A DNA stretch of 64,000 nucleotides from a virus (lineage: Duplodnaviria; Heunggongvirae; Uroviricota; Caudoviricetes). Location: positions 83,598 through 147,597 of the IMG/VR virus record IMGVR_UViG_3300038393_000804, one strand, 5' to 3'. This document shows, piece by piece, positions 2,686 to 64,000 of the stretch. Each line of letters begins with the position of its first letter. The stretch's first letter is position 1. The position numbers and the translations under genes were made by a program. A model generated the notes under the pieces. It had not been told where the DNA came from. It made no database searches and saw only the letters and a program-made list of their open reading frames with translations.

Positions 2686-5670
2686 TTACCAGCGACTTCT
2701 TGACGGCATTCCGCTTCTTCCGCCGCCCGAACCTCTAGCACCCCAGCCCAATGAAGTTCCGCGCTTTCCTACGCTTGTTTTGCGTGGTGGCGGAGGAGTA
2801 GGTTCATCCCATTTCTGGATGTACTCTTGTTTCTCCTGTTGGGTTCTGTCAGTACCTCTATAGATTCGTCCAAGCGGGTCAACGAACTTAACGTCCGCAA
2901 CCGCTACGGTTCTAGCTGGCTGTGAATCCTCAATGGTCTTAGCAATGTCAGGCATTTGGTCAATGAATGCAAAGATACCCAACATCATCGCATCGAGTGC
3001 GTGCTCATCAACATTGGTGTAAGTCGGTTCGCCAGTCTTCGGAGAAATACGTTCTACTGTGTAGTTCGTCATCTGTCTGAAGATAACTTCGTCAACATCC
3101 TTGTTAGGAATCATCAACTGACCACGTTCCAATATGAGTGTCGTTTGGTTAACCATGAACGGCTTTAACGGCTTGTTATCAAACTCACGACTATATGGGT
3201 CACGTACTAGATAAGAGCTGCCAAGTGCAATACCCTTAACGACATCGCCCAATGTCTTACGCAACATTTCGACCTGATATTCACCTGAGCCTCTGTCGGC
3301 ATAAATGGCGAATGGTCTGTAAATGTTATTGAGTTCAATAATCTTCCGAACCGCGTTATCATAGGTAAATTCGCCCTTTGGTATTTCTACACGATTGATG
3401 ACTTGGAATCGTCCATATTTGACTACTCCTGGCCCATCAACCTCTGGGCGTGGTCGCCTTTCTAAGAATGGATTCCATTGAGTAACAACGATTTGAGTCG
3501 CTGCACCCATCTTATCCCAGTCAACGCCAATGGCGATTGGGCTGTCCATCCTAGGCTGGCTGAGTAAAGCGTAACCATTAGACGCTGCCTCGTCAATATA
3601 ATCTTTGTTAAATACCCCCACTAATTCTGTACCGAAGTTCGCCATAACCTCATGGTCGTAAGCCACGTCACTGTAAAGGTTGCGTAATTCCCTTTCCATC
3701 TTCGGTGACCAGCCTGGGTTAACCATCGTTGGGAAGTAGAACTCCGCCCATCCTTCAGCTAGTTTTCGGTCATAAGTGCGGATATCAAATTGATTTGCCA
3801 GCTTACCTTCTACATCAGGGCCACCTTTAAATAGTCTTACATCTTGATTTAGCTTTTCCTGAGTACAGATTTGCCAGAATTTGCCCCGTCGTCCAGTCGG
3901 TGTAGATGCAACCATTACGCCGATTTCATCTGGTCTTTCAAGGGTAATCGCGAAGATAGCTTCAAAGTCTTTGTCGCCAAGGTAGTCAACCTCATCCATG
4001 TATAGCCAAGATGCTTTCTGACCACGGAGAGAACCACCCTCTGTACCACTACGAGTACCAGCTGTGTACAGCTTAATACGAGATTTATTCTTGAAGACAA
4101 TCTCATATGGAGAACGACGGATACTAGCAACCGCTGCTTGAAGCACTGGATTATTGTTAATGAAGTTGTTTAACTGGTCAAATATCTCACGGGCCTGTGT
4201 ATCGTATGGTGTTGCAACCAGACATGTAGCACCTTTCTTCAGCTCTGTACCACCATTACATGTAAAGGCAACCCAAAGCATATGCGCTGTCATTGTCCAT
4301 GTGTTATGCACCAATACATCTTCTACTACTAGGTTGTGAGTCTCTGGAACGAATACGTCATAAGTCTGACGCTTACCCAGTGGCTCAATCGCCGTCACTT
4401 CTTCCCAGATAACATCAGCACGAGCCAAGTCATAAAGGAATGCGGACTCAAGATTGTCAGCATACTTACGAATCTTAGAAATAGTCGGAGCTACGCCAGG
4501 ACGAAGACGTTCGTCTTTGCCGCCAGCTACCTGAGCTTTCGACATTTTCTTCTCTTTACGCTCTTGGTCAATATGCTTCCACACTTCAATAGGAACAGTG
4601 TGTTCTACTACTTCTGTCTTCTCTGCTTGCTCCACAATACCTTTCATTGTGTATTCAGAGCCAAGAATATTAATGTCCATGCCGAAAAGCATTAAGCTTT
4701 CGCGTCTATGAATCATCAATTGATAGATAAAGCTGACGTTGTCCTTGTACTTCTGCCTCTTTGTTTGGAGATTTGTCTGGATACCGAAGCGAAGCAATAG
4801 GTGCTTAACATCCTGTGCAAGCTTCTTAGATACTGTTGCAAATCCAATCTCTGGACGTGTGCCATTATAAACCCATCCACTTACTGCATATAAGCAATTT
4901 AGGAAGATAGATATTTGCTCTTTCTTCAATCCATAAATGAAACTAGGAATCTTTCTTTCTATTACTGCCATAAGGATGTCTTCATCAATAGAAGAAGCAA
5001 TGACACATGTATTCTCCTTATGAGCTTGGCGAATAACCTTTAGTCCATACTTCTCTGCATTATAGATGAAATCTTTCATAACAGTCTGAGACTTAGTACT
5101 GAATGTTAATTGGCTTCCGTTGTAATGTCCGCCTGCAATCAAATAAGCAATAAGCTTTACCTTTTCATAGAGCGTTAATCCGTTCCCGAAATAAGGCATA
5201 GCTGATGGTGTTGCAATGCGCATTCCCTTTTGAAGAGCATCCACTTCCACCCAACCATCTAATGTTAATACAGGATGATTGCCAGTCAGGATAACTTCTG
5301 CCCCGTATTTAGTGCGCACAAGAAATGTTTCCTTTACCCCATTGTCCTCTACAAAGAAAGCTTCACTTGGTTCTAAGTGATACTTCTCGTTTAATGTGAT
5401 GAGTGACGGTTTGCCGCCATCTTTCTGCATTTGGAATAGCTCTTCTACTGACCAGTACTCTCCTGTTACTGGGTCTAATACACGTTGGGTTTCCTCAATA
5501 CATTTTCCGATACGTCGTCCGCATCGAAGAACTTTACGGTGGTGAGGATGTCTTAAGATTTGCTCTTGATACCAACGAGGGGCCTCACCTAAATGGTGAG
5601 CTGCCCACTTCGCTGGGTCACGCATAATCTCAATCATTTCCCTATCGTGATTAGTAAATTGTTTTGCCAT
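2686..5670 (-). CDS. terL: terminase large subunit, interrupted in-frame by an intein
   Basis: Exteins join as CGRRIGK|TWT, giving a Walker A GxxxxGKT. Walker B LYMDEVD follows. A C-terminal nuclease-like region is present. Intein blocks: CIEET (A), GNHPVLT (B), LIAYLIAGGHY and FLNCLYAVSGWV (LAGLIDADG), VLVHN|T (G). Confidence 0.85.
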   Translation of the reverse strand: MAKQFTNHDREMIEIMRDPAKWAAHHLGEAPRWYQEQILRHPHHRKVLRCGRRIGKCIEETQRVLDPVTGEYWSVEELFQMQKDGGKPSLITLNEKYHLEPSEAFFVEDNGVKETFLVRTKYGAEVILTGNHPVLTLDGWVEVDALQKGMRIATPSAMPYFGNGLTLYEKVKLIAYLIAGGHYNGSQLTFSTKSQTVMKDFIYNAEKYGLKVIRQAHKENTCVIASSIDEDILMAVIERKIPSFIYGLKKEQISIFLNCLYAVSGWVYNGTRPEIGFATVSKKLAQDVKHLLLRFGIQTNLQTKRQKYKDNVSFIYQLMIHRRESLMLFGMDINILGSEYTMKGIVEQAEKTEVVEHTVPIEVWKHIDQERKEKKMSKAQVAGGKDERLRPGVAPTISKIRKYADNLESAFLYDLARADVIWEEVTAIEPLGKRQTYDVFVPETHNLVVEDVLVHNTWTMTAHMLWVAFTCNGGTELKKGATCLVATPYDTQAREIFDQLNNFINNNPVLQAAVASIRRSPYEIVFKNKSRIKLYTAGTRSGTEGGSLRGQKASWLYMDEVDYLGDKDFEAIFAITLERPDEIGVMVASTPTGRRGKFWQICTQEKLNQDVRLFKGGPDVEGKLANQFDIRTYDRKLAEGWAEFYFPTMVNPGWSPKMERELRNLYSDVAYDHEVMANFGTELVGVFNKDYIDEAASNGYALLSQPRMDSPIAIGVDWDKMGAATQIVVTQWNPFLERRPRPEVDGPGVVKYGRFQVINRVEIPKGEFTYDNAVRKIIELNNIYRPFAIYADRGSGEYQVEMLRKTLGDVVKGIALGSSYLVRDPYSREFDNKPLKPFMVNQTTLILERGQLMIPNKDVDEVIFRQMTNYTVERISPKTGEPTYTNVDEHALDAMMLGIFAFIDQMPDIAKTIEDSQPARTVAVADVKFVDPLGRIYRGTDRTQQEKQEYIQKWDEPTPPPPRKTSVGKRGTSLGWGARGSGGGRSGMPSRSRW
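4303..5502 (-). mobile_element. Intein of about 400 aa (TerL residues about 57-456) with a LAGLIDADG homing endonuclease domain, inserted in the TerL P-loop
   Basis: Starts with Cys right after GRRIGK and ends in HN followed by Thr. Two LAGLIDADG-like motifs lie between the splicing blocks. Confidence 0.7.
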
Positions 5671-33943: not shown

Positions 33944-35197
33944 ATGAACGAAATGGAATTTGCTAATGCAGTGCATGAAGCTGGGGGTATTGCTTACCGT
34001 GTGGGTGGCAGCATCCGTAATAAAATCTTGGGCATTCCCGTTCATGATAATGATTATTGTGTTACTGGTTTAACAGGAGAACAATTTGAAAGATTATTTC
34101 CTCGTGCTTATTCTGTTGGGCTTAGCTTTCATGTATATCTTCTAGAAATCGGAGAAGAAATATGTGAGGTAGCTTTTGCTAGGAGAGAAAAGAAAGTGGG
34201 CGAAGGACACAGAGGATTTGAAATAGATTCTAGTCCCGACATTACGATTGAAGAAGACTTATCTCGTCGTGATTTTACAATGAATGCGATTGCTTATAAC
34301 ATTCTTCGAGATGAGCTTTATGACCCATTTAGCGGTCAGAGAGACATTAAGAATAAAATAATCAATGCAACAACAGAAGCGTTTAAAGAAGACCCATTAA
34401 GGGTTTATCGGGCCGCACGATTTGCTGCTCAATTAGGATTTGATGTACATCCGAATACATTAGAAATGATGAAGGATGAAACTCTACAAGAGGAGATGAA
34501 GTCATTATCGGTTGAACGTGTTTATCTTGAACTAGAAAAAGCTTTAGAGTCTGACCACCCAGAAAAGTTTTTTGAAGTACTGAAAAATGGGCAGTGCCTA
34601 CAGGTTCACTTCAAAGAAGTTTATGACTTAATTGGTGTGGAGCAACATCCTGAACATCATCCAGAGGGTGATGCGTATAATCATACGATGCAGGTTTTGT
34701 CTGAGATGTGCAAGCTAACAGACCAAGTTGAAAGGAGATTTACTGCTCTTTGTCATGACTTTGGTAAGGCTCGTACTCCTAAAGAGTTGTGGCCTAAGCA
34801 TCATGGTCATGAAGAAGCTGGTGTAGCACCGCTAGAAGAAATATGTATTCGTTTGAAGCTTCCGAAAAAATGGTTTAATGCCGCTCATTTTGGCGTTCTT
34901 AATCATATGAGATTTCATCGTGTTCATGAAATGAGGGACGTGAAGAAAGTCGATATGATTGAAGGAGCTAGAAAAAGTGCATTGGGTGTTGAAGGTCTTG
35001 CTCAATTAGGATTAGCAGATGCTCGTGGTCGGAATGGATTACATGAAGGACATTCTAATTACGGGCCATTTCTATTCTGGGCTAATGAGATTTCTAAAGT
35101 TAAAGGTAATAAGGAACTTGAAGGCATGAAAGCGTGGGATGACAAAAGAAAGAGACAGGCTGCTCTTATAAAACAAATCAAAGGAGAGAGCAAATGA
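33944..35197 (+). CDS. cca: CCA-adding tRNA nucleotidyltransferase / poly(A) polymerase family enzyme with a C-terminal HD domain
   Basis: Head domain GGSIRN...HDNDY (GGxxR[DN]...DxD), RRDFTMNAIAY, and an HD domain (HDFGK, HGHEEAG). Confidence 0.8.
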   Translation: MNEMEFANAVHEAGGIAYRVGGSIRNKILGIPVHDNDYCVTGLTGEQFERLFPRAYSVGLSFHVYLLEIGEEICEVAFARREKKVGEGHRGFEIDSSPDITIEEDLSRRDFTMNAIAYNILRDELYDPFSGQRDIKNKIINATTEAFKEDPLRVYRAARFAAQLGFDVHPNTLEMMKDETLQEEMKSLSVERVYLELEKALESDHPEKFFEVLKNGQCLQVHFKEVYDLIGVEQHPEHHPEGDAYNHTMQVLSEMCKLTDQVERRFTALCHDFGKARTPKELWPKHHGHEEAGVAPLEEICIRLKLPKKWFNAAHFGVLNHMRFHRVHEMRDVKKVDMIEGARKSALGVEGLAQLGLADARGRNGLHEGHSNYGPFLFWANEISKVKGNKELEGMKAWDDKRKRQAALIKQIKGESK

Positions 35198-44143: not shown

Positions 44144-45574
44144 ATGTCGATGATGGATTTGCCACCACCGCTAAAACCTACAGAAACATTAGAGCTGCTT
44201 AGAGCATACAAGGCGGGGGATGAGGAAGCTAAAGAGAAAGTAATTGAAGGTAATCTCAGGTTGGTAGTGCATATTGCAAAAAAGTATGACAACACAGGAC
44301 TAGACATAGAGGATTTGTTTAGTATTGGATTAATCGGTATGATTAAAGCTGTTCATACTTTTAACACAGAGAAGGAAGTCAAGTTTGCTACATACGCTTC
44401 ACGATGCATCGACAACGAAATCTTGATGTTCCTTCGGAAAGGTAAGAAAATCAAAGCTGAAACGTCCATTGACAGCCCGATAACGACGGATATAGATGGA
44501 CATGAATTAACTTTGATGGATGTCACGCCTGATAAGAACATCCAACATTTCTCAGAAGTGTTTGAATGGAACGATACCATGGCTGAAGTACGAGCTGCAT
44601 TGGAAGGCTTGTCGCCACGGGATAAAGATATTATTCTTATGCGTTACTTTCAAAATCAAACACAACGGGAAGTGTCGGCGGCACTCGATATCTCTCAGTC
44701 CTACATATCAAGGATAGAGAAAAAGATATTGAAGAAAATAAAAAAGACCATTGAGTCTAATCAAGCTAAGGCAGAAAGGAATGAAGAGAAAATGGCTAGA
44801 GGAATTGCACCAGCCAATAAGAAAGAAGTTATTCACTTGTTAAAGACAACGACGATGTCTTACAAAGAAATCAATGAAAAGACAGGCGTACCTTACAGCA
44901 CTATTGCAACGTATGCTCAGAAGCACCGTCCAAAAGAAGTGCGGAAGGAAAAGATGACTAATCATCCAGGCATGGTTCGTGAACATAGCGGGGACACCGA
45001 TAAAGCGGTCCAGTTGTTGGCAGAAGGTAAATATACCTATGCAGAGATATCAAAACAAACAGGTGTCCCAACAGGTAGTCTAACCAGATTACGTCGTTTA
45101 TATGAGAAAGGCGATTACAAATGGGTCAATGAACCTAAGAAACGGGTGGAGATTGAAGTACCAGTTGAAACGCCAGTGATTAATCATCCAGCTTTCATGG
45201 GTGAAAAAGACAAGGAAAGGTTGGTAGAACAAGTGCCTGTTGTAAAACATGAAGTTGAGCAAGTGGAAATCAAGAAGCCTGAACAGCCTGTTGTGAATAT
45301 GGCAGAAGCAATCGAAGAGTTCAAGGCTGAAATCAAAGCCGAGCTTCGTGCAGAAGTTGAAGCAGAGGTTCGCAAGGAGATGGCTGCTGAAAGCGTTGCT
45401 ACAGAGACATCACCAATGGGTAAGATTCAAAAGCTTCTAACATTTAAGTATCATGCTTCGGGCGGGAACGTTCCAACTGAAGATTTCGTAGCTGAAATGA
45501 AAGAGCTGATTAGCATGCTTGAAGAAAGCAATAACGGTTCTATCACATTCACATTAAATGTAGAAGCTGAGTAG
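44144..45574 (+). CDS. sigma-70 family sigma factor resembling sporulation SigF/SigG (regions 2-4), fused to a roughly 270-aa C-terminal extension carrying two extra HTH-like repeats
   Basis: Region 2 IEGNLRLVVHIAKKYDNTGLDIEDLFSIGLIGMIKAVHTFN...KFATYASRCIDNEILMFLRK. Region 4 LSPRDKDIILMRYFQNQTQREVSAALDISQSYISRIEKKILKKIKK. Confidence 0.8.
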   Translation: MSMMDLPPPLKPTETLELLRAYKAGDEEAKEKVIEGNLRLVVHIAKKYDNTGLDIEDLFSIGLIGMIKAVHTFNTEKEVKFATYASRCIDNEILMFLRKGKKIKAETSIDSPITTDIDGHELTLMDVTPDKNIQHFSEVFEWNDTMAEVRAALEGLSPRDKDIILMRYFQNQTQREVSAALDISQSYISRIEKKILKKIKKTIESNQAKAERNEEKMARGIAPANKKEVIHLLKTTTMSYKEINEKTGVPYSTIATYAQKHRPKEVRKEKMTNHPGMVREHSGDTDKAVQLLAEGKYTYAEISKQTGVPTGSLTRLRRLYEKGDYKWVNEPKKRVEIEVPVETPVINHPAFMGEKDKERLVEQVPVVKHEVEQVEIKKPEQPVVNMAEAIEEFKAEIKAELRAEVEAEVRKEMAAESVATETSPMGKIQKLLTFKYHASGGNVPTEDFVAEMKELISMLEESNNGSITFTLNVEAE

Positions 45575-47191: not shown

Positions 47192-47488
47192 ATGCTAGAA
47201 AAAATTAAGCAAATCAAAGATGCACTACCATTGCAATTTAAAGATACACCGCACTTCGCTCATCATGTTATTACAAAGATTGATGAATTTGAAGAGCAGG
47301 AGCGCAGGCTATCGGCATCCAATGCATTAGCTGGCATCAAACAAAACCCTGTTGAAGAATCAGTAAGAAGGGAAACACTAAGAGTTGTGAGAGCTATCAT
47401 CATGAAGGAACTTGCGGACACTGTCGAAGATATGCTTCATTTAGGTGATAAGTATCATGAGGTCAAACATAAGGATGGGATTCGATGA
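47192..47488 (+). CDS. hypothetical protein, 98 aa
   Basis: TTAGGAGGATGATTGG RBS. Confidence 0.5.
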   Translation: MLEKIKQIKDALPLQFKDTPHFAHHVITKIDEFEEQERRLSASNALAGIKQNPVEESVRRETLRVVRAIIMKELADTVEDMLHLGDKYHEVKHKDGIR

Positions 47489-48225
47489 AGAAGCATGACA
47501 GACATGTTGTTGCTATGATAAATGGCGGCAGTCATATGCGTAATTTAAATGATGAACAATCAGATGTGGATTTGAAATACTTTGTTCTTCCAACCTTTGA
47601 TGATTTATATGAAGGCAAGAAGCATGCAAAGCAAACAACTTCGGATGAAGTGGATGAAGATGTTCAGGATGTAAGACGGCTTGAGACTTTATTGTTCAAA
47701 GCGAATCCTGCTTATCTTGATTTATTATTTAGCCCAGGCATTGAAACATTCGGATGCCAGAAGATGGATGAAATCATTGCGATGAGAGATGACATAGCCA
47801 ATATGAATCTCTCCAATCTTTACAGTGCTACGATGGGTACGGTTCAGCGGAACATCAATGACCTTCAGAATCCAACTTCGGAGAAGACACGGGCACTGAT
47901 TGAACGACATGCTTACAATCCAAAGAAAGCAATGTTGGCTGTTCATCTTTGCAAAGTACTGGTTAAGTTTCATGCAAATGGCTTTACGGACTACAAGAAA
48001 GCTATCTGGTATGAAGGTGAAGAACGCCAGTTCATGATAGATATCAAACGTGGTAAGTTTACATTTGATGAAATCAGAATGCTGATTAAGGATTGGGAAA
48101 CAGCAGCACAAGAATTAAAAGATGTTTACAAATCAAAAGAAATTCGTGTCGAAGTAAACAATCAGCTTCAGGAGAAGCTAAGAGATTTAATCTTTGATGC
48201 GACTTTAGATGGGTGGATAATATGA
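47485..48225 (+). CDS. Pol-beta-superfamily nucleotidyltransferase-like protein, 246 aa
   Basis: GGSHMRNLNDEQSDVDL fits GS-x9-11-DxD. Confidence 0.5.
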   Translation: MKKHDRHVVAMINGGSHMRNLNDEQSDVDLKYFVLPTFDDLYEGKKHAKQTTSDEVDEDVQDVRRLETLLFKANPAYLDLLFSPGIETFGCQKMDEIIAMRDDIANMNLSNLYSATMGTVQRNINDLQNPTSEKTRALIERHAYNPKKAMLAVHLCKVLVKFHANGFTDYKKAIWYEGEERQFMIDIKRGKFTFDEIRMLIKDWETAAQELKDVYKSKEIRVEVNNQLQEKLRDLIFDATLDGWII

Positions 48226-48452
48226 TATTTTACAATGATACAAACAAGGAGTATGTGATTCATCCAGCAACAGCGATTCATGGGATTGAATGCGATATGA
48301 GTCCCATCCCGCCACGCACAACACGTAAGTTTAAGGCTCCAAAAGGCATTGACCCATTCGTGAAAGTTTGGGAGTACGACAACAGCAATACGATTCTTGT
48401 ATCGGCAGCATTCGGTGAACCATTAGAAGAAGAAGTGGAGGAGTCAAAATGA
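48222..48452 (+). CDS. hypothetical small protein, 76 aa
   Basis: GGGTGG RBS before the ATG at 48222. Confidence 0.45.
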   Translation: MIFYNDTNKEYVIHPATAIHGIECDMSPIPPRTTRKFKAPKGIDPFVKVWEYDNSNTILVSAAFGEPLEEEVEESK

Positions 48453-49327
48453 TTTTATTAAATGGCAAAGAAGTTCCGTTCGGTAGATTTCCTAATGGCG
48501 AAACACATGTGATTACAACAATTGAAGCAACGGAGGAGCATCCAGCGCTCAATTTCTTCAAACAAAATATGGAGCAGGTAAATATCCTATCATTTAAGTA
48601 CGAAGATGATGCGGATTTAATCAAGCTGATGTTTGTTAAGAATCACATGGACTTGATTGCAACAGTTCCTTGTTATCTGCTTGTTTATTACATGCCTTAT
48701 TCACGCATGGACAGAAGCGAAGGCGGCAGCGTATTTACTTTAAAATATGTTTCTGCTTTTATTAACAGCCTTTATTTCGATAAAGTGTTTGTGATTGAAC
48801 CACATTCAGATGTAACATGTGCATTGCTTGACCGTTCAAAACCATTAATGGTAAATCAATTCTTAGTGAACTATGTTATGAATGAAATTGATTTTGATTT
48901 CGACAATGATTTCCTTGTTTATCCTGATGCTGGTGCGGAGAAACGTTACGAGAAAATGTTTGACCTTCAAGCAATCGTTGGTTTGAAACATCGTGATTTC
49001 CAAACAGGTTACATAACGAAACTTGATTTGGTTACACCAGGCATTGGTAAGAAAGCGATTATCGTTGATGACTTATCCAGTAAGGGTGGTACGTTTATCA
49101 TGGCTGCTGATGAGTTGAAGAAGCGTGGCTTTGAAGAAATCTATCTTTGTGTGGCTCACGCAGAAGACACTATCTTCAAGGGTAAAATATTTACGGAAAG
49201 TCCAATCAACAAAGTGTTTACAACCAACTCTATCTTATCTGACCAAGCTCAACATGATTGGGCAAATCAGCTATATAAAGATAAGATTGATGTGACGGAT
49301 GTCGAGGAGCTGATTGTTCTTGACTGA
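48449..49327 (+). CDS. ribose-phosphate pyrophosphokinase (PRPP synthetase, Prs) homolog; a candidate ADPR-PP synthetase (Adps) of a NARP1-type pathway
   Basis: Prs signatures RFPNGE, MPYSRMDR, IEPHSD and the PRPP-binding loop IIVDDLSSKGGT. Confidence 0.75.
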   Translation: MILLNGKEVPFGRFPNGETHVITTIEATEEHPALNFFKQNMEQVNILSFKYEDDADLIKLMFVKNHMDLIATVPCYLLVYYMPYSRMDRSEGGSVFTLKYVSAFINSLYFDKVFVIEPHSDVTCALLDRSKPLMVNQFLVNYVMNEIDFDFDNDFLVYPDAGAEKRYEKMFDLQAIVGLKHRDFQTGYITKLDLVTPGIGKKAIIVDDLSSKGGTFIMAADELKKRGFEEIYLCVAHAEDTIFKGKIFTESPINKVFTTNSILSDQAQHDWANQLYKDKIDVTDVEELIVLD

Positions 49328-49742
49328 CCCGTACCTATTGCCAGGTGCTGCAACCCTTCGTTTAATTAAGGAGTGGGAGCAGCACGGGAAGTTAATCGTT
49401 GCTTATGACTTTGATGGAACGGTTCATGACTACCACAAGGAAGGCAACAAGTACGACCAAGTCATTGAACTTCTTCGGGAGTGCAAGAAGCTTGGCTGTT
49501 ACTTGATTGTCTTTAGTACAAGTGAACCAGAACGACATGATTTCATTAAGAATTATCTTGATAGATGGGATATTCCTTATGACGCAGTCAATGAAAACAT
49601 GCCAGGTCTTCCGTTTAAAGGCGGCAAGATTTATTACAACATCCTGCTGGACGACAGAGCAGGATTAGAGTCAGCTTATTATTCATTAAAGCAAGCTAGC
49701 AGTTATATTAAATTGAAACGGGAGGAAACAAATAATGACTAA
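49314..49742 (+). CDS. HAD-superfamily phosphatase-like protein
   Basis: DxDGT motif (YDFDGTV) near the N-terminus; TTG start with GAGGAG. Confidence 0.55.
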   Translation: MFLTDPYLLPGAATLRLIKEWEQHGKLIVAYDFDGTVHDYHKEGNKYDQVIELLRECKKLGCYLIVFSTSEPERHDFIKNYLDRWDIPYDAVNENMPGLPFKGGKIYYNILLDDRAGLESAYYSLKQASSYIKLKREETNND

Positions 49743-51264
49743 AACTATTTTTCCAGCTACATTGTTGTGTGATTTTTACAAGGTGTCTCACCGTGAGCAG
49801 TATCCAAAGAAAACAAATAAGGTTTTCAGCACATGGATTGCACGAGGCAACAAGTACTTCCCGAAAGCAAAGAAAGTTGTAGCGTTTAACTTCCAAGGAT
49901 TAACCAAGAAATACTTTGTTGATTACTTCAATGAGCATTTCTTTAGCCGTCCAAAGGATGAAGTGGTATTTGAATACCAACGTGTTATCTACTTTACATT
50001 AATCAATCCTGGCAATGTTCAGGGTGTTGCAGACCCATTAATGGAAGCATCAAAGGTCGATGCGGAGCACATTGCAGCTCTTCATGATTTAGGTTATCTT
50101 CCAGTTCGTGTAAGAGCTGTGAAAGAAGGTACGTTGGTTCCAATGCGTGTTCCAATGTTGGTCATCGAAAATACAGTGGATGAATTCTACTGGGTAACAA
50201 ATTATCTTGAAACCATTATGTCAGCTGAGCTTTGGCAGCCAACAACATCTGCAACGATTGCTTACACGTACCGTCAGATTCTTGATGCGTATGCGATGGA
50301 AACAACAGGTTCTACAGCAGGTGTTGAATTCCAGGGTCATGATTTCTCTATGCGCGGTATGGCTGGCAAGGATGCGGCGGCAGCAAGTGGTGCTGGTCAC
50401 TTACTAAGTTTTGTTGGTACAGATACAATCCCAGCTATCAATTATCTTGAAGCTTATTACAATGCAAACATCGAGAAAGAATTGGTGGCAACTTCAATAC
50501 CTGCGACTGAACATTCAGTGATGTGCGCATACGGTCAAACAGATGAGTATGAATTATTCAAATCACTGATGACTGAAAAGTATCCAACAGGTTTCTTCAG
50601 CGTAGTATCTGATACTTGGGACTTCTGGAAAGTGGTTGGTGAATACTTACCGAAGCTGAAAGAAGAAATCCTTGGTCGTGATGGTCGCGTGGTTATTCGT
50701 CCTGACAGTGGTGACCCAGTTAAGATTCTTTGTGGTGACCCGAATGCAGAAGAAGAATTGGTGCGTAAAGGTTTAATTGAGAGCCTCTACGACATCATTG
50801 GCGGCACAGTAAATGATTTAGGGTACAAAGTATTAGACCCTCACATCGGAGCTATCTACGGCGATTCTATTACGCTAGAGAGAGCTGATTTGATTTGTGC
50901 TTTGTTAAAAGAAAAAGGCTTTGCTTCAACAAACGTGGTATTTGGTATCGGAAGCTTTACCTATCAGTATACAACGCGTGATACATTTGCACATGCGATG
51001 AAAGCAACCTTTGCTGAAGTGGATGGAGAAGAGCGCTTCTTATTGAAAGACCCTAAGACAGATGATGGTACAAAGAAATCATTAACTGGATTAGTGGCAG
51101 TTGTAAAAGTCGGTGGTGAATTAGTAGCCACTGATAATCTGGATACGAAAACTTATGAAGCAAACTTTGCAAACATTGACCTTCTTGAAGTTATCTTTGA
51201 GAACGGTGAAATCAAACGTGAAGAAAGCTTATCTGAAATTCGTGAAAGATTGGCGGCCCAATAA
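49735..51264 (+). CDS. nadV: nicotinamide phosphoribosyltransferase (NAMPT/NadV) family enzyme; alternatively a Namat-type nicotinamide ADPR transferase
   Basis: N-terminal DFYKVSHREQYP matches the NadV D.YK.SH..QYP signature; GGGAGGAAAC RBS. Confidence 0.8.
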   Translation: MTKTIFPATLLCDFYKVSHREQYPKKTNKVFSTWIARGNKYFPKAKKVVAFNFQGLTKKYFVDYFNEHFFSRPKDEVVFEYQRVIYFTLINPGNVQGVADPLMEASKVDAEHIAALHDLGYLPVRVRAVKEGTLVPMRVPMLVIENTVDEFYWVTNYLETIMSAELWQPTTSATIAYTYRQILDAYAMETTGSTAGVEFQGHDFSMRGMAGKDAAAASGAGHLLSFVGTDTIPAINYLEAYYNANIEKELVATSIPATEHSVMCAYGQTDEYELFKSLMTEKYPTGFFSVVSDTWDFWKVVGEYLPKLKEEILGRDGRVVIRPDSGDPVKILCGDPNAEEELVRKGLIESLYDIIGGTVNDLGYKVLDPHIGAIYGDSITLERADLICALLKEKGFASTNVVFGIGSFTYQYTTRDTFAHAMKATFAEVDGEERFLLKDPKTDDGTKKSLTGLVAVVKVGGELVATDNLDTKTYEANFANIDLLEVIFENGEIKREESLSEIRERLAAQ

Positions 51265-51930: not shown

Positions 51931-51936
51931 GCTTCG

Positions 51937-51960
51937 GGCGAAAGATATTCTTTCGTCTTT
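51937..51960 (+). terminator. candidate terminator (CGAAAGA-TAT-TCTTTCG plus TCTTT)
   Basis: 7-bp stem; modest T tail. Confidence 0.35.
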
Positions 51961-52170
51961 GAGGGTACGAGGCAGGTTTCCTTTTCGGTTCCTTTCCCCT
52001 GCTTCGTATTTTCAAAGATGTAAGAATGCCAAGGTTAGGGTGGACAGCACTAGTGAGTGGAAACCAATTCCTGTTTGAAACCGAAGTTCTTGCGTTCCAC
52101 ATAGATATTAAGTTAGTGATGGGATGGAAACTCATAGCGAGCCAACAAACTCTTCACACCGCGACACTGA

Positions 52171-52251
52171 ACTCTATGTGGTTCTATTTATCCTAGAGGG
52201 TATAACGAGCTTGACCAGCTCACAACTTATGTGTTGTACCTTCTAAGATAA
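52171..52251 (+). repeat. hairpin unit A (about 20-bp imperfect stem, about 34-nt loop containing a GAGCT/AGCTC sub-hairpin)
   Basis: Left GGTTCTATTTATCCTAGAGGGTA is the complement of right TACCTTCTAAGATAAATAGAAATT. Confidence 0.5.
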
Positions 52252-52412
52252 ATAGAAATTAAGATGAGTGCCGCGGCCTTCTAAGCCGCCTTGCACATCT
52301 ATTGATTCTGAAATCTGTTTATTACCATGTGTATATTAAGCTAGGGTGATGGAGCTTTGACGAAGTTTAAATGTCACGCAGCGTGGCAGCCTGTTGACGT
52401 TGAATTACACAT

Positions 52413-52509
52413 GGTTCTATTTATCTTGGAGGATGCAATGATATGACCGCGGATTATGCCCGATTGTAGGCCCCGCCTTTGCATCTTCCCAGATGAATAG
52501 AAATTAAGG
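52413..52509 (+). repeat. hairpin unit B
   Basis: Left GGTTCTATTTATCTTGGAGGA pairs with right TCTTCCCAGATGAATAGAAATT. Confidence 0.45.
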
Positions 52510-52677
52510 ACACATGGACCCCGCTAATAGCGTAAGCGGTCTACTGAAATCTGTTTATCCCACATCAATGCCAAGGATTAAATATGGGCTGCGGACTTCC
52601 TACGCCTTCGTGATTGATTCAAGGAGTGGTCAACATCGAAGGAAGGGGGATTATGGTACACCGTCCGAAGTTGATGT

Positions 52678-52831
52678 GGTTCTATTTGTCTTAGACAGTA
52701 TGATGGTAGGTAGGTTTTTTAGGTTATCTCCAACCAGTATTTTTTACTACCTAAGTGAGTTGACTTCTTGGGAGCAGCTACACTTCAGTGACGATTGACA
52801 TCGTGCTGTCTAAGATGAATAGAAATTAAGG
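52678..52831 (+). repeat. hairpin unit C (longer loop, about 107 nt)
   Basis: Left GGTTCTATTTGTCTTAGACAG pairs with right CTGTCTAAGATGAATAGAA. The two mismatches are both G-U-compatible. Confidence 0.5.
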
Positions 52832-53056
52832 TTGCCTAAGAATAGGGTTACGGCGATGACAACGCTGGTAATTAATGTCCTCATAGCGAGTAAAAGCGAG
52901 ATTCCCGCCATACCGTTTTAGGTGAAGGTCTTAGGATTAATCTGAAATCTATATGTCACATCCAGTTATTAAGCTAGTGGCAGGCTACTGCGCGAGCACG
53001 GGGCCGTGAAACGATGATGCTGAACGCTGGATGTTTTGTTTAATGAAAGGAGGTAA

Positions 53057-53836
53057 ATGATGCACCCGACTGAAGTTGAATACGAAAGACGACCTTATGA
53101 AGGTCAGATTGATGCAGGCATGAAAACATTCATGGATATAATGGATTCAGTTGCAATGGAACATGGAACACAATGGTCATTTGCAGGTGGGTTTCCTAGG
53201 GATTTATACAAGGGAAAGCACTGGAATGATTATGATGTTTGTATTCGTGATGTTCCTTATGCAAGAGACATCTTAGAAAAGACAGGAGTGTTAGCACTTG
53301 GGCAGCAGGATGGAACAGAGATTCCTCATGACATCTATTGCGACCCCTACACATTCACGAAATCAGAAATACCTGTTCATTGGATTAATGCAGATGATGA
53401 GTGGGCATTCGCTCCCGTTCGTTTTGACTTTAGTATTAATCAGATATGTTTGAAGTCAGATGGTTTTTTCTATGCTCCGAAGTATGCATGGCGTGACCTT
53501 GATAGAGGAATCATTAGAAAAACAACGGACAGGATGACAACAAACTTAGCAACACGGGCGATTCGGTTCGCTGCCAAGTATGGATTCACCATTGATACTC
53601 CATTGAATGCTGAAATAAAAGAAGCAGTTAAGGAGCCAATGGGCACAGATATTCTTCTTCGTAATTGCTTAAAGATGGTTGAAGATGAAGTTGGTGATAC
53701 ATGCTTTAAGATAATGAAGAACCGTGGATTTCCTCACATGGAAGAATGCAAAACAATGGGTGATTATATTAGAAAGTTAAACAACATGATTGTCAGTGGG
53801 CAAGGACACCGCGAAGAAAGTCCAGGCGGATATTAA
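53057..53836 (+). CDS. minimal nucleotidyltransferase resembling the head domain of CCA-adding/polyA-polymerase enzymes, 259 aa
   Basis: GGFPRDLYKGKHWNDYDVCIRD fits GGxxRD...DxD; AAAGGAGGTAA RBS. Confidence 0.55.
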   Translation: MMHPTEVEYERRPYEGQIDAGMKTFMDIMDSVAMEHGTQWSFAGGFPRDLYKGKHWNDYDVCIRDVPYARDILEKTGVLALGQQDGTEIPHDIYCDPYTFTKSEIPVHWINADDEWAFAPVRFDFSINQICLKSDGFFYAPKYAWRDLDRGIIRKTTDRMTTNLATRAIRFAAKYGFTIDTPLNAEIKEAVKEPMGTDILLRNCLKMVEDEVGDTCFKIMKNRGFPHMEECKTMGDYIRKLNNMIVSGQGHREESPGGY

Positions 53837-54841: not shown

Positions 54842-55019
54842 TAGATATCATTTGGAATATCGTTGCTGAAGTCATTGGAGAAATACTTGCACGATGCATT
54901 TACAAGGGTCGGGACCGATAAAGGTTCTGGCTCTTATTTATTATAGTGGCTGTCATAAGCCCTCTAACTTCGGGAGTTGGTTGGCTTAAACATTCATTAT
55001 TATGAAGGAGGTTGACACA

Positions 55020-63835: not shown

Positions 63836-64000
63836 ATGAAGGTTCGCGTAAAGGTTCAGAATCATTGGAGCAGTGATATTCGAGATAGCCTTAATCAGAA
63901 TCCTATTCGAGAAGTCTACATTGAAGAACACGAACACGACAGCGACCCAAAGTACGGCTGGTACTTGGTTCATACAGGAGTTGAAACTACTGGCACTTTT
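63836..64000 (+). CDS. hypothetical protein, 5' partial in this window (continues beyond the window end)
   Basis: GAGGTGATAAC RBS; ATG at 63836. Confidence 0.4.
   Translation, partial: MKVRVKVQNHWSSDIRDSLNQNPIREVYIEEHEHDSDPKYGWYLVHTGVETTGTF

Follow-up and report, generated by a model that had tools for sequence, protein, structure and literature searches.

Several described systems share features with the locus reported here. In the split CC-adding and A-adding enzymes (Aquifex type; 1vfg, 4wby, 3wfo), two class II nucleotidyltransferase paralogues are found per genome, and both retain the body, the tail and the EDxxR template. The T4 tRNA cluster (species 1 and 2 RNAs) and the MHV68 TMERs are polycistronic arrays of tRNAs or tRNA-like RNAs and hairpins, with tRNA-processing enzymes and CCA addition. 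YrlA and YrlB (RF02553) are tandem structured RNAs that come from one precursor, each with a long stem and a tRNA-like domain, and the YrlA of M. smegmatis receives CCA (PMC4201824). A 64,000-nt stretch of DNA from a virus of the Caudoviricetes (IMG/VR record IMGVR_UViG_3300038393_000804, positions 83,598 to 147,597; here called the window) was found to encode two class II nucleotidyltransferases on its + strand. Judged by domains and motifs, P1 (33944-35197; 417 aa, ATG start) is a CCA-adding enzyme with a C-terminal HD phosphohydrolase domain, and P2 (53057-53836; 259 aa) is a divergent enzyme made up of a head and a neck. Both open reading frames (ORFs) had been placed correctly by a first-pass annotation of the window. 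The gene-free stretch directly upstream of P2 (51931-53056, + strand) is a tandem array of four structured RNA units, apparently undescribed so far, and its pairing with P2 hints at a dedicated RNA-tailing module.

The region 51931-53056 was left empty by gene callers. It contains three families of direct repeats at 233-398 nt spacing and inverted repeats of 21-26 nt, and the repeat motifs were found nowhere else in the window (3 matches versus 0.03 expected). Units were delineated by iterative nhmmer, and a covariance model (CM), R1, was built from 13 units and searched over 830 kb of sequence, including ~600 kb of unrelated control loci. Repeats, unit hidden Markov model (HMM), linkers and CM mark four units, all on the + strand. 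These are u0 (51937-52035; arms 51956-51976/51998-52018; 67.3 bits, E 2.8e-13), in which the arm mismatches are G.U on the + strand; unit A (52165-52265; arms 52182-52206/52233-52257; 75 bits, E 3e-15), the stem of which is a 25-nt inverted repeat (I1, 88% complementary); unit B (52398-52510; arms about 52415-52438/52479-52503; 68.6 bits, E 1.2e-13); and unit C (52663-52832; arms 52680-52705/52799-52824; 65.6 bits, E 7.2e-13), with a stem formed by a 26-nt inverted repeat (I2, 85% complementary) and an apical insert of 93 nt. CM scores on the - strand were about half of those on the + strand, and no match with E < 0.4 was found in the ~600 kb of control loci.

The covariation evidence for the array structure is strong. 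An alignment of 16 units revealed a 22-bp hairpin and a 4-bp helix that closes the next hairpin, with pairing in 94.1% of cells, versus 79.2% in shuffled alignments (equalled in 0/500) and 37-52% when the partners were slid. Changes on both sides were seen at 18 of the 26 pairs (9.3 expected; 0/500 shuffles), and the covariation score was 0.571 against 0.279 in shuffles (0/500), as expected of a structured RNA. G.U pairs outnumbered A.C pairs by 43 to 11 (p 1.4e-5), so the helix would work only as RNA of the + strand, the strand of P2. Folding z-scores of -3.9 and -2.2 were obtained for the + strand in the array.

Each gap is punctuated by two conserved, purine-rich linkers in alternation, YYGAA and RAUNNYAAG. 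On the 3' side of YYGAA there is either a conserved long hairpin with a variable apex or a short conserved segment, and on the 3' side of YAAG a variable hairpin 'slot' that is closed by AG/CU of both linkers. The units are heterogeneous, at 100-370 nt, and the slots of the window array hold plain hairpins. One of these (52273-52289, + strand; GCGGC-CUUCUAA-GCCGC) is shaped like an anticodon stem-loop, its 5-bp stem carrying a loop of 7 nt with U33, A37 and 'UCU' in the place of the anticodon. Mimicry of anticodon stem-loops was considered for the slots but is not relied on, as 9 such hairpins were found versus 3 expected, mostly with T-arm-type loops and in relatives, and only one in the window. 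By eye only, GGCGAAAG, which conforms to the Ro-binding motif GNCGAAN0-1G, was seen at the 5' edge of u0, and no claim is made from it.

The association between the array and P2 was then followed in related phages. The CM identified 4 units in the window and 3-7 in each of five relatives, all in the gap directly upstream of a P2 homologue, and the array holds this position in 6/6 lineages with at least 40% P2 identity. Across the array lineages the P2 proteins are 40-56% identical, and the linkers and stems are conserved. The matching gene-free gap in the relatives is 0.9-2.1 kb long. The gene upstream of the array varies (NamPT, NUDIX or small ORFs), with P2 fixed downstream. A linker of the GCUGAACGCUGGAU type was found 20-30 nt before the P2 ribosome-binding site in 6/6 lineages; in the window, the last linker (53019-53032, + strand) stands 14 nt before the site, which is AAGGAGG, rated good (53047-53053, + strand). 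As no terminator was found between the array and P2, and this last linker is kept before the ribosome-binding site, P2 looks like the last 'slot' of the array transcript. A scan for a sigma-70 promoter separating the two was uninformative, given that the phage has its own sigma factor. When DNA patterns with the RNA motif were used to look for further arrays, 70, 7 and 1 loci were returned, all attributable to chance and with neither a match to the unit HMM nor a P2 homologue.

Slots in the relatives hold a genuine tRNA-Lys(UUU), a tRNA-like element and a domain with a T arm followed by a D arm. The last of these, in locus L080, matches YrlA with E 8e-4, at 33.2 bits, below the gathering score of 69. 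The apex of one long hairpin in a relative carries two T-arm-like hairpins. The tRNA and tRNA-like genes inside the homologous arrays of L080 and L079 are a canonical tRNA-Lys(UUU) (55.7 bits) and a tRNA-like gene (33.8 bits), both without an encoded CCA.

The closest analogues of the array are tandem, CCA-tailed Y RNA-like RNAs, though it lacks the defining features of each system compared. It resembles Y RNA-like RNAs in the YrlA-matching module and the T-arm-like apical hairpins of relatives, and in one distant locus (L094) 5 kb separates a P2-like gene from a Ro60 gene, as in the pairing of Y RNA with Ro60. However, no unit of the window matches YrlA, the match in a relative falls under the gathering score, and the conserved stem sequence differs; no Ro60 (TROVE) gene was found next to the array among the window ORFs scanned, Ro60 being present only in L094. 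The array also differs from the T4 cluster and the TMERs in that its repeat is a conserved, covarying 22-bp hairpin with fixed linkers, has no tRNA-like part in the window and is accompanied by a dedicated nucleotidyltransferase gene. ARAGORN and Rfam detected no tRNA gene in the window array, which is not a tRNA cluster by this measure, and Rfam detected no known family there even at E<=10, YrlA included. No description of such a structured-RNA array was found in the literature searched.

Pfam gave no match for P2, and those from PHROG and NCBIfam were weak (PHROG 1614, E 2.8e-8). An indexed search of 5.8 billion proteins returned 18 homologues, all metagenomic. An exhaustive profile search yielded 46 proteins at E<=1e-10, with full-length class II enzymes of 340-440 aa at the lower end, and weaker matches beyond this set grade into canonical CCA enzymes. 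No locus was confirmed when IMG/VR and JGI metagenome contigs were scanned with protein patterns for relatives of P2. An AlphaFold model built from the family alignment (pLDDT 91.1, pTM 0.86) was compared with the PDB using Foldseek, and the top 45 matches were all class II CCA-, CC- or A-adding enzymes or PAP, the best being the T. maritima enzyme 3h39 (E 3.3e-10, TM 0.62 relative to the query). The superposition takes in ~244 columns, which correspond to head and neck in targets of 340-460 aa. The model stops after the neck helices, and the body and tail that bind the tRNA acceptor and T arm are absent. P2 had been annotated as a head domain only, which understates it, as the neck is present, and which passes over altered forms of motifs B and D. 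P2 is also related to P1, which lies 18 kb away in the window (hhalign probability 93%).

The GGFPRDL...DYDVCIRD quoted earlier for P2 is present in its translation. Motif A, with G44 G45 x x R48 D49 ... N57 D58 x D60 and the catalytic carboxylates (53186-53236, + strand), does not vary among 17 members of the family and aligns in register with enzymes of known structure; in the broad family G44, R48 and D60 are invariant, and G45 and D58 are at least 90% conserved. P2 is probably a working nucleotidyltransferase. However, it lacks three features that define CCA-adding enzymes, namely RRD, EDxxR and the body and tail. In place of RRD in motif B, P2 has F123-D124-F125-S-I127-N128 preceded by V-R rather than R-R (53423-53440, + strand), so that it reads V-R-F-D, with (H/R/N)-F-D in the family and only the Asp kept. 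Motif D reads M-T-T-N163-L-A-T-R167-A-I-R170-F171 (53534-53569, + strand) instead of E-D-x-x-R-x-x-R-A-x-R-F, and the base-templating Glu, Asp and Arg are gone. The C terminus of P2 carries a conserved G-x-G-x-R-E...Y stretch. The suggestion in the first-pass annotation that P2 might transfer nucleotides to another substrate fits, because P2 appears to be tied to a structured-RNA array.

Among the described proteins, the split enzymes are like P1 and P2 in being two class II paralogues in one genome, and the P2 model fits their structures nearly as well as those of full CCA enzymes. P2 nevertheless differs from them in having no body, tail or EDxxR template. Short class II-like nucleotidyltransferases of 170-230 aa are common in phages, and those of PHROG 1614 (Pseudomonas phage LKD16, Caulobacter phage Cd1 and Pectobacterium phage PP2; 170-230 aa) are, like P2, truncated heads of the pol-beta/class II kind. 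P2 is longer, with a complete neck, and forms a separate sequence family, and no array has been reported for the PHROG 1614 proteins. Structural matches of P2 to short phage nucleotidyltransferases in BFVD reached a TM of only 0.4-0.6, none being structurally close. The RlaP family is similar in its proposed chemistry, the addition of 1-2 nt to RNA 3'-OH ends without a CCA template, but is a different pol-beta family, related to P2 in sequence and fold only at the superfamily level.

For P1, the first-pass annotation of a complete class II tRNA nucleotidyltransferase with an HD domain agrees with Pfam, PHROG, NCBIfam and residue alignments. The head (aa 17-140; 33992-34363, + strand) matches PF01743 PolyA_pol (E 1.9e-23), aa 165-226 match PolyA_pol_RNAbd (E 4.6e-9), corresponding to the RNA-binding region of the body and tail, and the HD domain (aa 245-326; 34676-34921, + strand), with H...CHD...HHGH, matches PF01966 (E 3.8e-6; 27.6 bits, cutoff 22) and, weakly, TIGR00277 HDIG. 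PHROG 2244 'tRNA nucleotidyltransferase' matches P1 at 1.1e-98. Among NCBIfam models, PRK10885 'multifunctional CCA addition/repair protein' fits best (6e-100, aligned over aa 17-373), but the score of 334.9 bits falls short of the curated equivalog cutoff of 451, and P1 is placed as a PRK10885 homologue, not a certified equivalog. CCA-adding enzymes in the PDB match P1 at 2.6e-26 with the motifs in register. In the alignment with 6ibp, GGSIRN...HDNDY of P1 lies over GGAVRD...HDVDV, so that the Asp of 'RD' is Asn in P1, and motif B (RRDFTMNA) and motif D (EDPLRVYRAARF) are also in register with a solved CCA-adding enzyme. The motifs quoted earlier (GGSIRN, D-N-D and RRDFTMNAIA) are all in the translation, as are EDPLR (motif D) and CHD, but RRDFTMNAIA is motif B of the head, which also holds motif A (GGSIRN...D-N-D), and the label of neck given to it does not stand.

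Going by these domains and motifs, P1 is a CCA-adding enzyme of the textbook class II type, complete with HD domain and with every motif intact. Its domain order (head, neck/body, HD), motifs A, B and D and HD signature are those of enterobacterial Cca (PRK10885) and PHROG 2244, and identity to Salmonella Cca and to enzymes of Cronobacter and Salmonella phages is 38-42%; it differs from Cca in the score of 335 bits against 451 and in the GGSIRN that stands for GGxxRD. By tblastn, 499 phage records contain homologues of P1; the closest, with 42% identity, come from Cronobacter/Salmonella phages of ~145 kb. P1 is therefore an ordinary phage gene of an already known kind, and it adds little alone, as CCA-adding enzymes are common in large phages. 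In the survey of Iyer et al., the CCA-adding enzyme is among the commonest pol-beta RNA-repair enzymes of jumbo phages (PMC7824862).

The first-pass annotation had also taken the lack of tRNA genes in the window to suggest that P1 serves the repair of host tRNAs. The absence of tRNA genes was confirmed for the 64-kb window (ARAGORN, Rfam) but does not extend past its edge. A protein identical to P2 is encoded on a 526,029-bp metagenomic contig; the window therefore covers only ~12% of the genome of a huge phage, which has at least 526 kb. Locus L003, which shares 3,865 nt with the window at full identity and continues it to the right, carries two tandem tRNA-derived genes 850-1060 nt beyond position 64000 (L003 4715-4789 and 4843-4927, equivalent to 64850-64924 and 64978-65062). 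One of the two attains the Rfam tRNA gathering score, at 31.4 bits. Their T and D arms are normal and neither encodes CCA (0/2), but their anticodon loops are abnormal, with 6 nt in one and, in the other, either 8 nt or an AUAG tetraloop on a 7-bp stem. The argument from missing tRNA genes to host-tRNA repair fails, given that the window is a small part of the genome and that CCA-less tRNA-like genes occur nearby and in relatives; the original observation was largely correct, if ordinary for P1 and imprecise for P2, but this key inference rested on an accident of windowing. Stop-codon recoding was rejected as a reason for the odd L003 genes, as TAA, TAG and TGA are all used. A second array around them was likewise rejected: the spacer between the two genes was the best match of the linker HMM but with E 0.11, and the CM found no hairpin unit, leaving a likeness to the short linker module of the array that is suggestive only.

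It is proposed that the two enzymes would serve different RNAs. The pol-beta head of P1 would add C, C and A to tRNA 3' ends using the EDxxR protein template, and its HD domain could strip 2',3'-cyclic or 3'-phosphate blocks. The domains and motifs are observed, and the substrates follow from them by inference. The main job of P1 would be to complete the tRNA and tRNA-like transcripts of the phage, because every tRNA or tRNA-like gene seen in this lineage is without CCA, and a second would be the repair of host tRNAs trimmed by nucleases. P2 would be the last cistron of a + strand unit, the first 1.1 kb of which is the four-hairpin array. The array would be transcribed, cleavage at the linkers or the 22-26-bp stems would release small structured RNAs from it, and P2 would add one or a few nucleotides, not necessarily CCA, to the 3' ends of these RNAs, stabilising or activating them. 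Such substrates would be simple helices rather than L-shaped tRNAs, which would explain a P2 with neither body nor tail. This composite reading, in which P1 matures tRNA and tRNA-like RNAs of the phage and P2 tails RNAs released from the array, is preferred only tentatively, though it may well be right.

Several observations weigh against it. The six array lineages are syntenic relatives, so that the count of 6/6 is not made up of independent cases, and no tRNA-like module was found in the window array. It is possible that the array serves as a long leader, or that it is a small-RNA locus in its own right whose only tie to P2 is a common promoter. No array was found at the three distant P2-like genes examined (22-28% identity), and as full-length CCA/HD enzymes are encoded one gene away from two of these (P0031, 28%, and P0033, 26%), the substrate of P2 could be tRNA itself. 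P0031 is also near an RNase T-like gene, and the third (P0040, 22%) has no context of RNA-end metabolism. In favour of the reading is the RNA-metabolism context of the family, seen at P0031 and P0033 and also at a further P2-like gene (P0023, 33% identity), located in L094 among genes for a Ro60 orthologue (TROVE and vWA_Ro60), an RNA ligase, Thg1 and a P-loop kinase. This RNA-repair island (L094 1-12894) also includes an Apyc1-like metallo-beta-lactamase, NamPT, NMNAT and NUDIX, and a single hairpin upstream of P0023 (L094 5339-5407) aligns with a u0-type unit, with a marginal CM match (24 bits, E 0.03).

A further step from the composite reading, possible but on balance doubtful, is that the array and P2 make up an undescribed phage RNA system in which a modular cassette transcript is coupled to a minimal transferase that gives non-CCA or untemplated 3' ends. 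The hairpins and linkers would then frame interchangeable cargo RNAs, which are plain hairpins here and tRNA-Lys, tRNA-like and Y-RNA-like modules in relatives. The products could be decoys or sponges for host nucleases that target tRNA, or adaptors for RNA quality control similar to Y RNAs. tRNA-Lys(UUU) is a classic target of anticodon nucleases, and as slots accept it along with modules of the tRNA-like and Y-RNA-like kinds, this locus could be an example of the packaging and maturation of counter-defence RNAs by giant phages. The more valuable result is that a pared-down class II transferase goes together with a modular RNA array whose units covary. It could define a new family of phage small RNAs and, in a much-studied enzyme family, a new specificity class, revealing which nucleotides such an enzyme adds when it has lost the EDxxR template.

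In the alternative that survives best, P1 mainly repairs host tRNAs in which defence nucleases have damaged the 3' end or the anticodon loop, and P2, an unrelated transferase, has another molecule as its substrate. Host-tRNA repair as counter-defence has already been proposed for jumbo phages from comparative genomics (PMC7824862), and an HD domain with CCA addition suits the healing of trimmed tRNA ends. A defence that cleaves the CCA tails of tRNAs has been described without a known viral countermeasure, its authors foreseeing 'other, yet unknown' ones (PMC12851939), which makes P1 more interesting as a test object. A further end-repair enzyme is also encoded in the window, an RlaP-family pol-beta nucleotidyltransferase of 246 aa (47485-48225, + strand; PF10127, 24.6 bits, cutoff 23; PHROG 388, 8e-26), the third nucleotidyltransferase of the window. 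Members of this family add 1-2 nucleoside monophosphates at damaged RNA 3' ends (PMC12776372). However, the immediate neighbours of P1 encode an SPFH/Band 7 protein, an AAA ATPase and proteins of unknown function, with no RNA-repair genes among them. No RNA ligase or kinase adjoins P1, no kinase/phosphatase or RtcB was found near it, and no Ro60/TROVE, RNA ligase, RtcB or Pnk was found among the window ORFs scanned. Hosts have a Cca of their own, cuts in the anticodon loop are beyond CCA addition, the premise that tRNA genes are absent fails outside the window, and the linkage of P2 to the array is left unexplained. Host-tRNA repair by P1 as counter-defence is plausible in itself. The completion of the phage's own CCA-less tRNAs is at least as likely, because the tRNA and tRNA-like genes of this phage lineage lack CCA and need it added, and the two roles are compatible. 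As a full account that also sets P2 apart from the array, host repair is rather unlikely, and it is not exclusive of the composite reading.

Where P2 is concerned, the main rival is that it is an accessory to P1 that rebuilds tRNA 3' ends upstream of CCA, for example the discriminator, ahead of CCA addition by P1, with the array merely a neighbouring small-RNA or tRNA locus. The work would be shared in the manner of the split CC-adding and A-adding enzymes or of RlaP. This would account for the distant P2-like genes that lie one gene from a full CCA/HD enzyme at two independent loci, once with RNase T, and for the one found among RNA ligase, Thg1 and Ro60. The loss of the EDxxR template suits a specificity other than CCA, and Cas12a3 takes off 2-4 nt including the discriminator. 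However, P2 is without the body and tail that hold the acceptor and T arm of tRNA in class II enzymes, and P1 and P2 are 18 kb apart in this genome. The rival also leaves unexplained why the array-P2 junction is kept in 6/6 lineages despite changing upstream neighbours, and it is considered unlikely.

It is very unlikely that the array is a DNA-level element (a replication origin, or repeats for recombination or packaging) or a decayed tRNA cluster, with the adjacency of P2 incidental. Long tandem inverted repeats are present in the region, and tRNA or T-arm remnants are found within the arrays of some relatives, as would be expected under one or the other version. However, the compensatory changes maintain pairing rather than sequence. 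The four-fold excess of G.U over A.C, the good folding of the + strand alone and the CM scores on that strand, about double those on the - strand, also speak against a DNA element, and decay is difficult to reconcile with linkers and stems that are conserved although the P2 proteins are only 40-56% identical.

In ToxI-ToxN, a repeated structured RNA is located directly upstream of a protein gene. The array-then-gene layout resembles this, motif A of P2 is intact with altered specificity motifs, and nucleotidyltransferases that block tRNA acceptor ends exist (PMC7450476, PMC11541572), but it is highly improbable that P2 is a toxin-like enzyme tailing host RNAs or tRNA acceptor ends (as MenT, or by poly(A)-like destabilisation), and so shutting off the host, with the array as decoy or antidote in the manner of a type III toxin-antitoxin system, as there is no terminator between the repeats and P2, the units are heterogeneous and 100-370 nt long rather than short identical repeats as in ToxIN-like systems, P2 has the class II CCA fold and not that of MenT/AbiEii, and its relatives adjoin repair genes, not toxins.

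The ORF downstream of P2 (53790-54704, + strand; 304 aa) overlaps the P2 stop codon by 47 nt and is followed by a second of 595 aa (55002-56789, + strand). Homologues of the former come after the P2 homologues at all loci, and both proteins are kept directly downstream of P2 in all relatives. They were considered as RNA-binding or Ro-like partners and rejected, as Pfam, PHROG and PDB gave no match for either; most of the 595-aa protein consists of coiled coil and low-complexity sequence with repeated GGFNP..LLALGDG motifs.

The window as a whole has a G+C content of 41% and ~90 ORFs, mostly on the + strand. Many of them have no known function, and they include those for a large terminase and a sigma factor. 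No near-identical DNA was found for the window among deposited phages. The sigma-70-family factor (44144-45574, + strand; 476 aa; PHROG 351 at 2.5e-78) is encoded upstream of the array/P2 region, a position that is kept in relatives. The large terminase gene (2686-5670, - strand; 994 aa) appears to be interrupted by an intein with a homing endonuclease; an identical gene on a related contig has Pfam Intein_splicing and LAGLIDADG_3 matches.

The RlaP-family gene heads an NAD+ salvage cluster that includes a Prs-like ribose-phosphate pyrophosphokinase (48449-49327, + strand) and a NamPT-like phosphoribosyltransferase (49735-51264, + strand), with a 142-aa ORF between them. Together, the Prs-like and NamPT-like enzymes suggest that the phage has a pathway for NAD+ salvage or reconstitution, of the type that counters NAD+-depleting defences. 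A cluster for ubiquitin-like conjugation was also found near the right end of the window (57318-58397, 60731-61489, 61532-62818 and 62889-63806, all + strand). Its products include a protein of 359 aa in which Prok_Ub is repeated six times (E 5.9e-30), one with a JAB domain and one that is ThiF/E1-like, and an intervening gene for a protein of 252-255 aa has a Prok-E2_D match in a relative. This cluster is kept across related huge phages.

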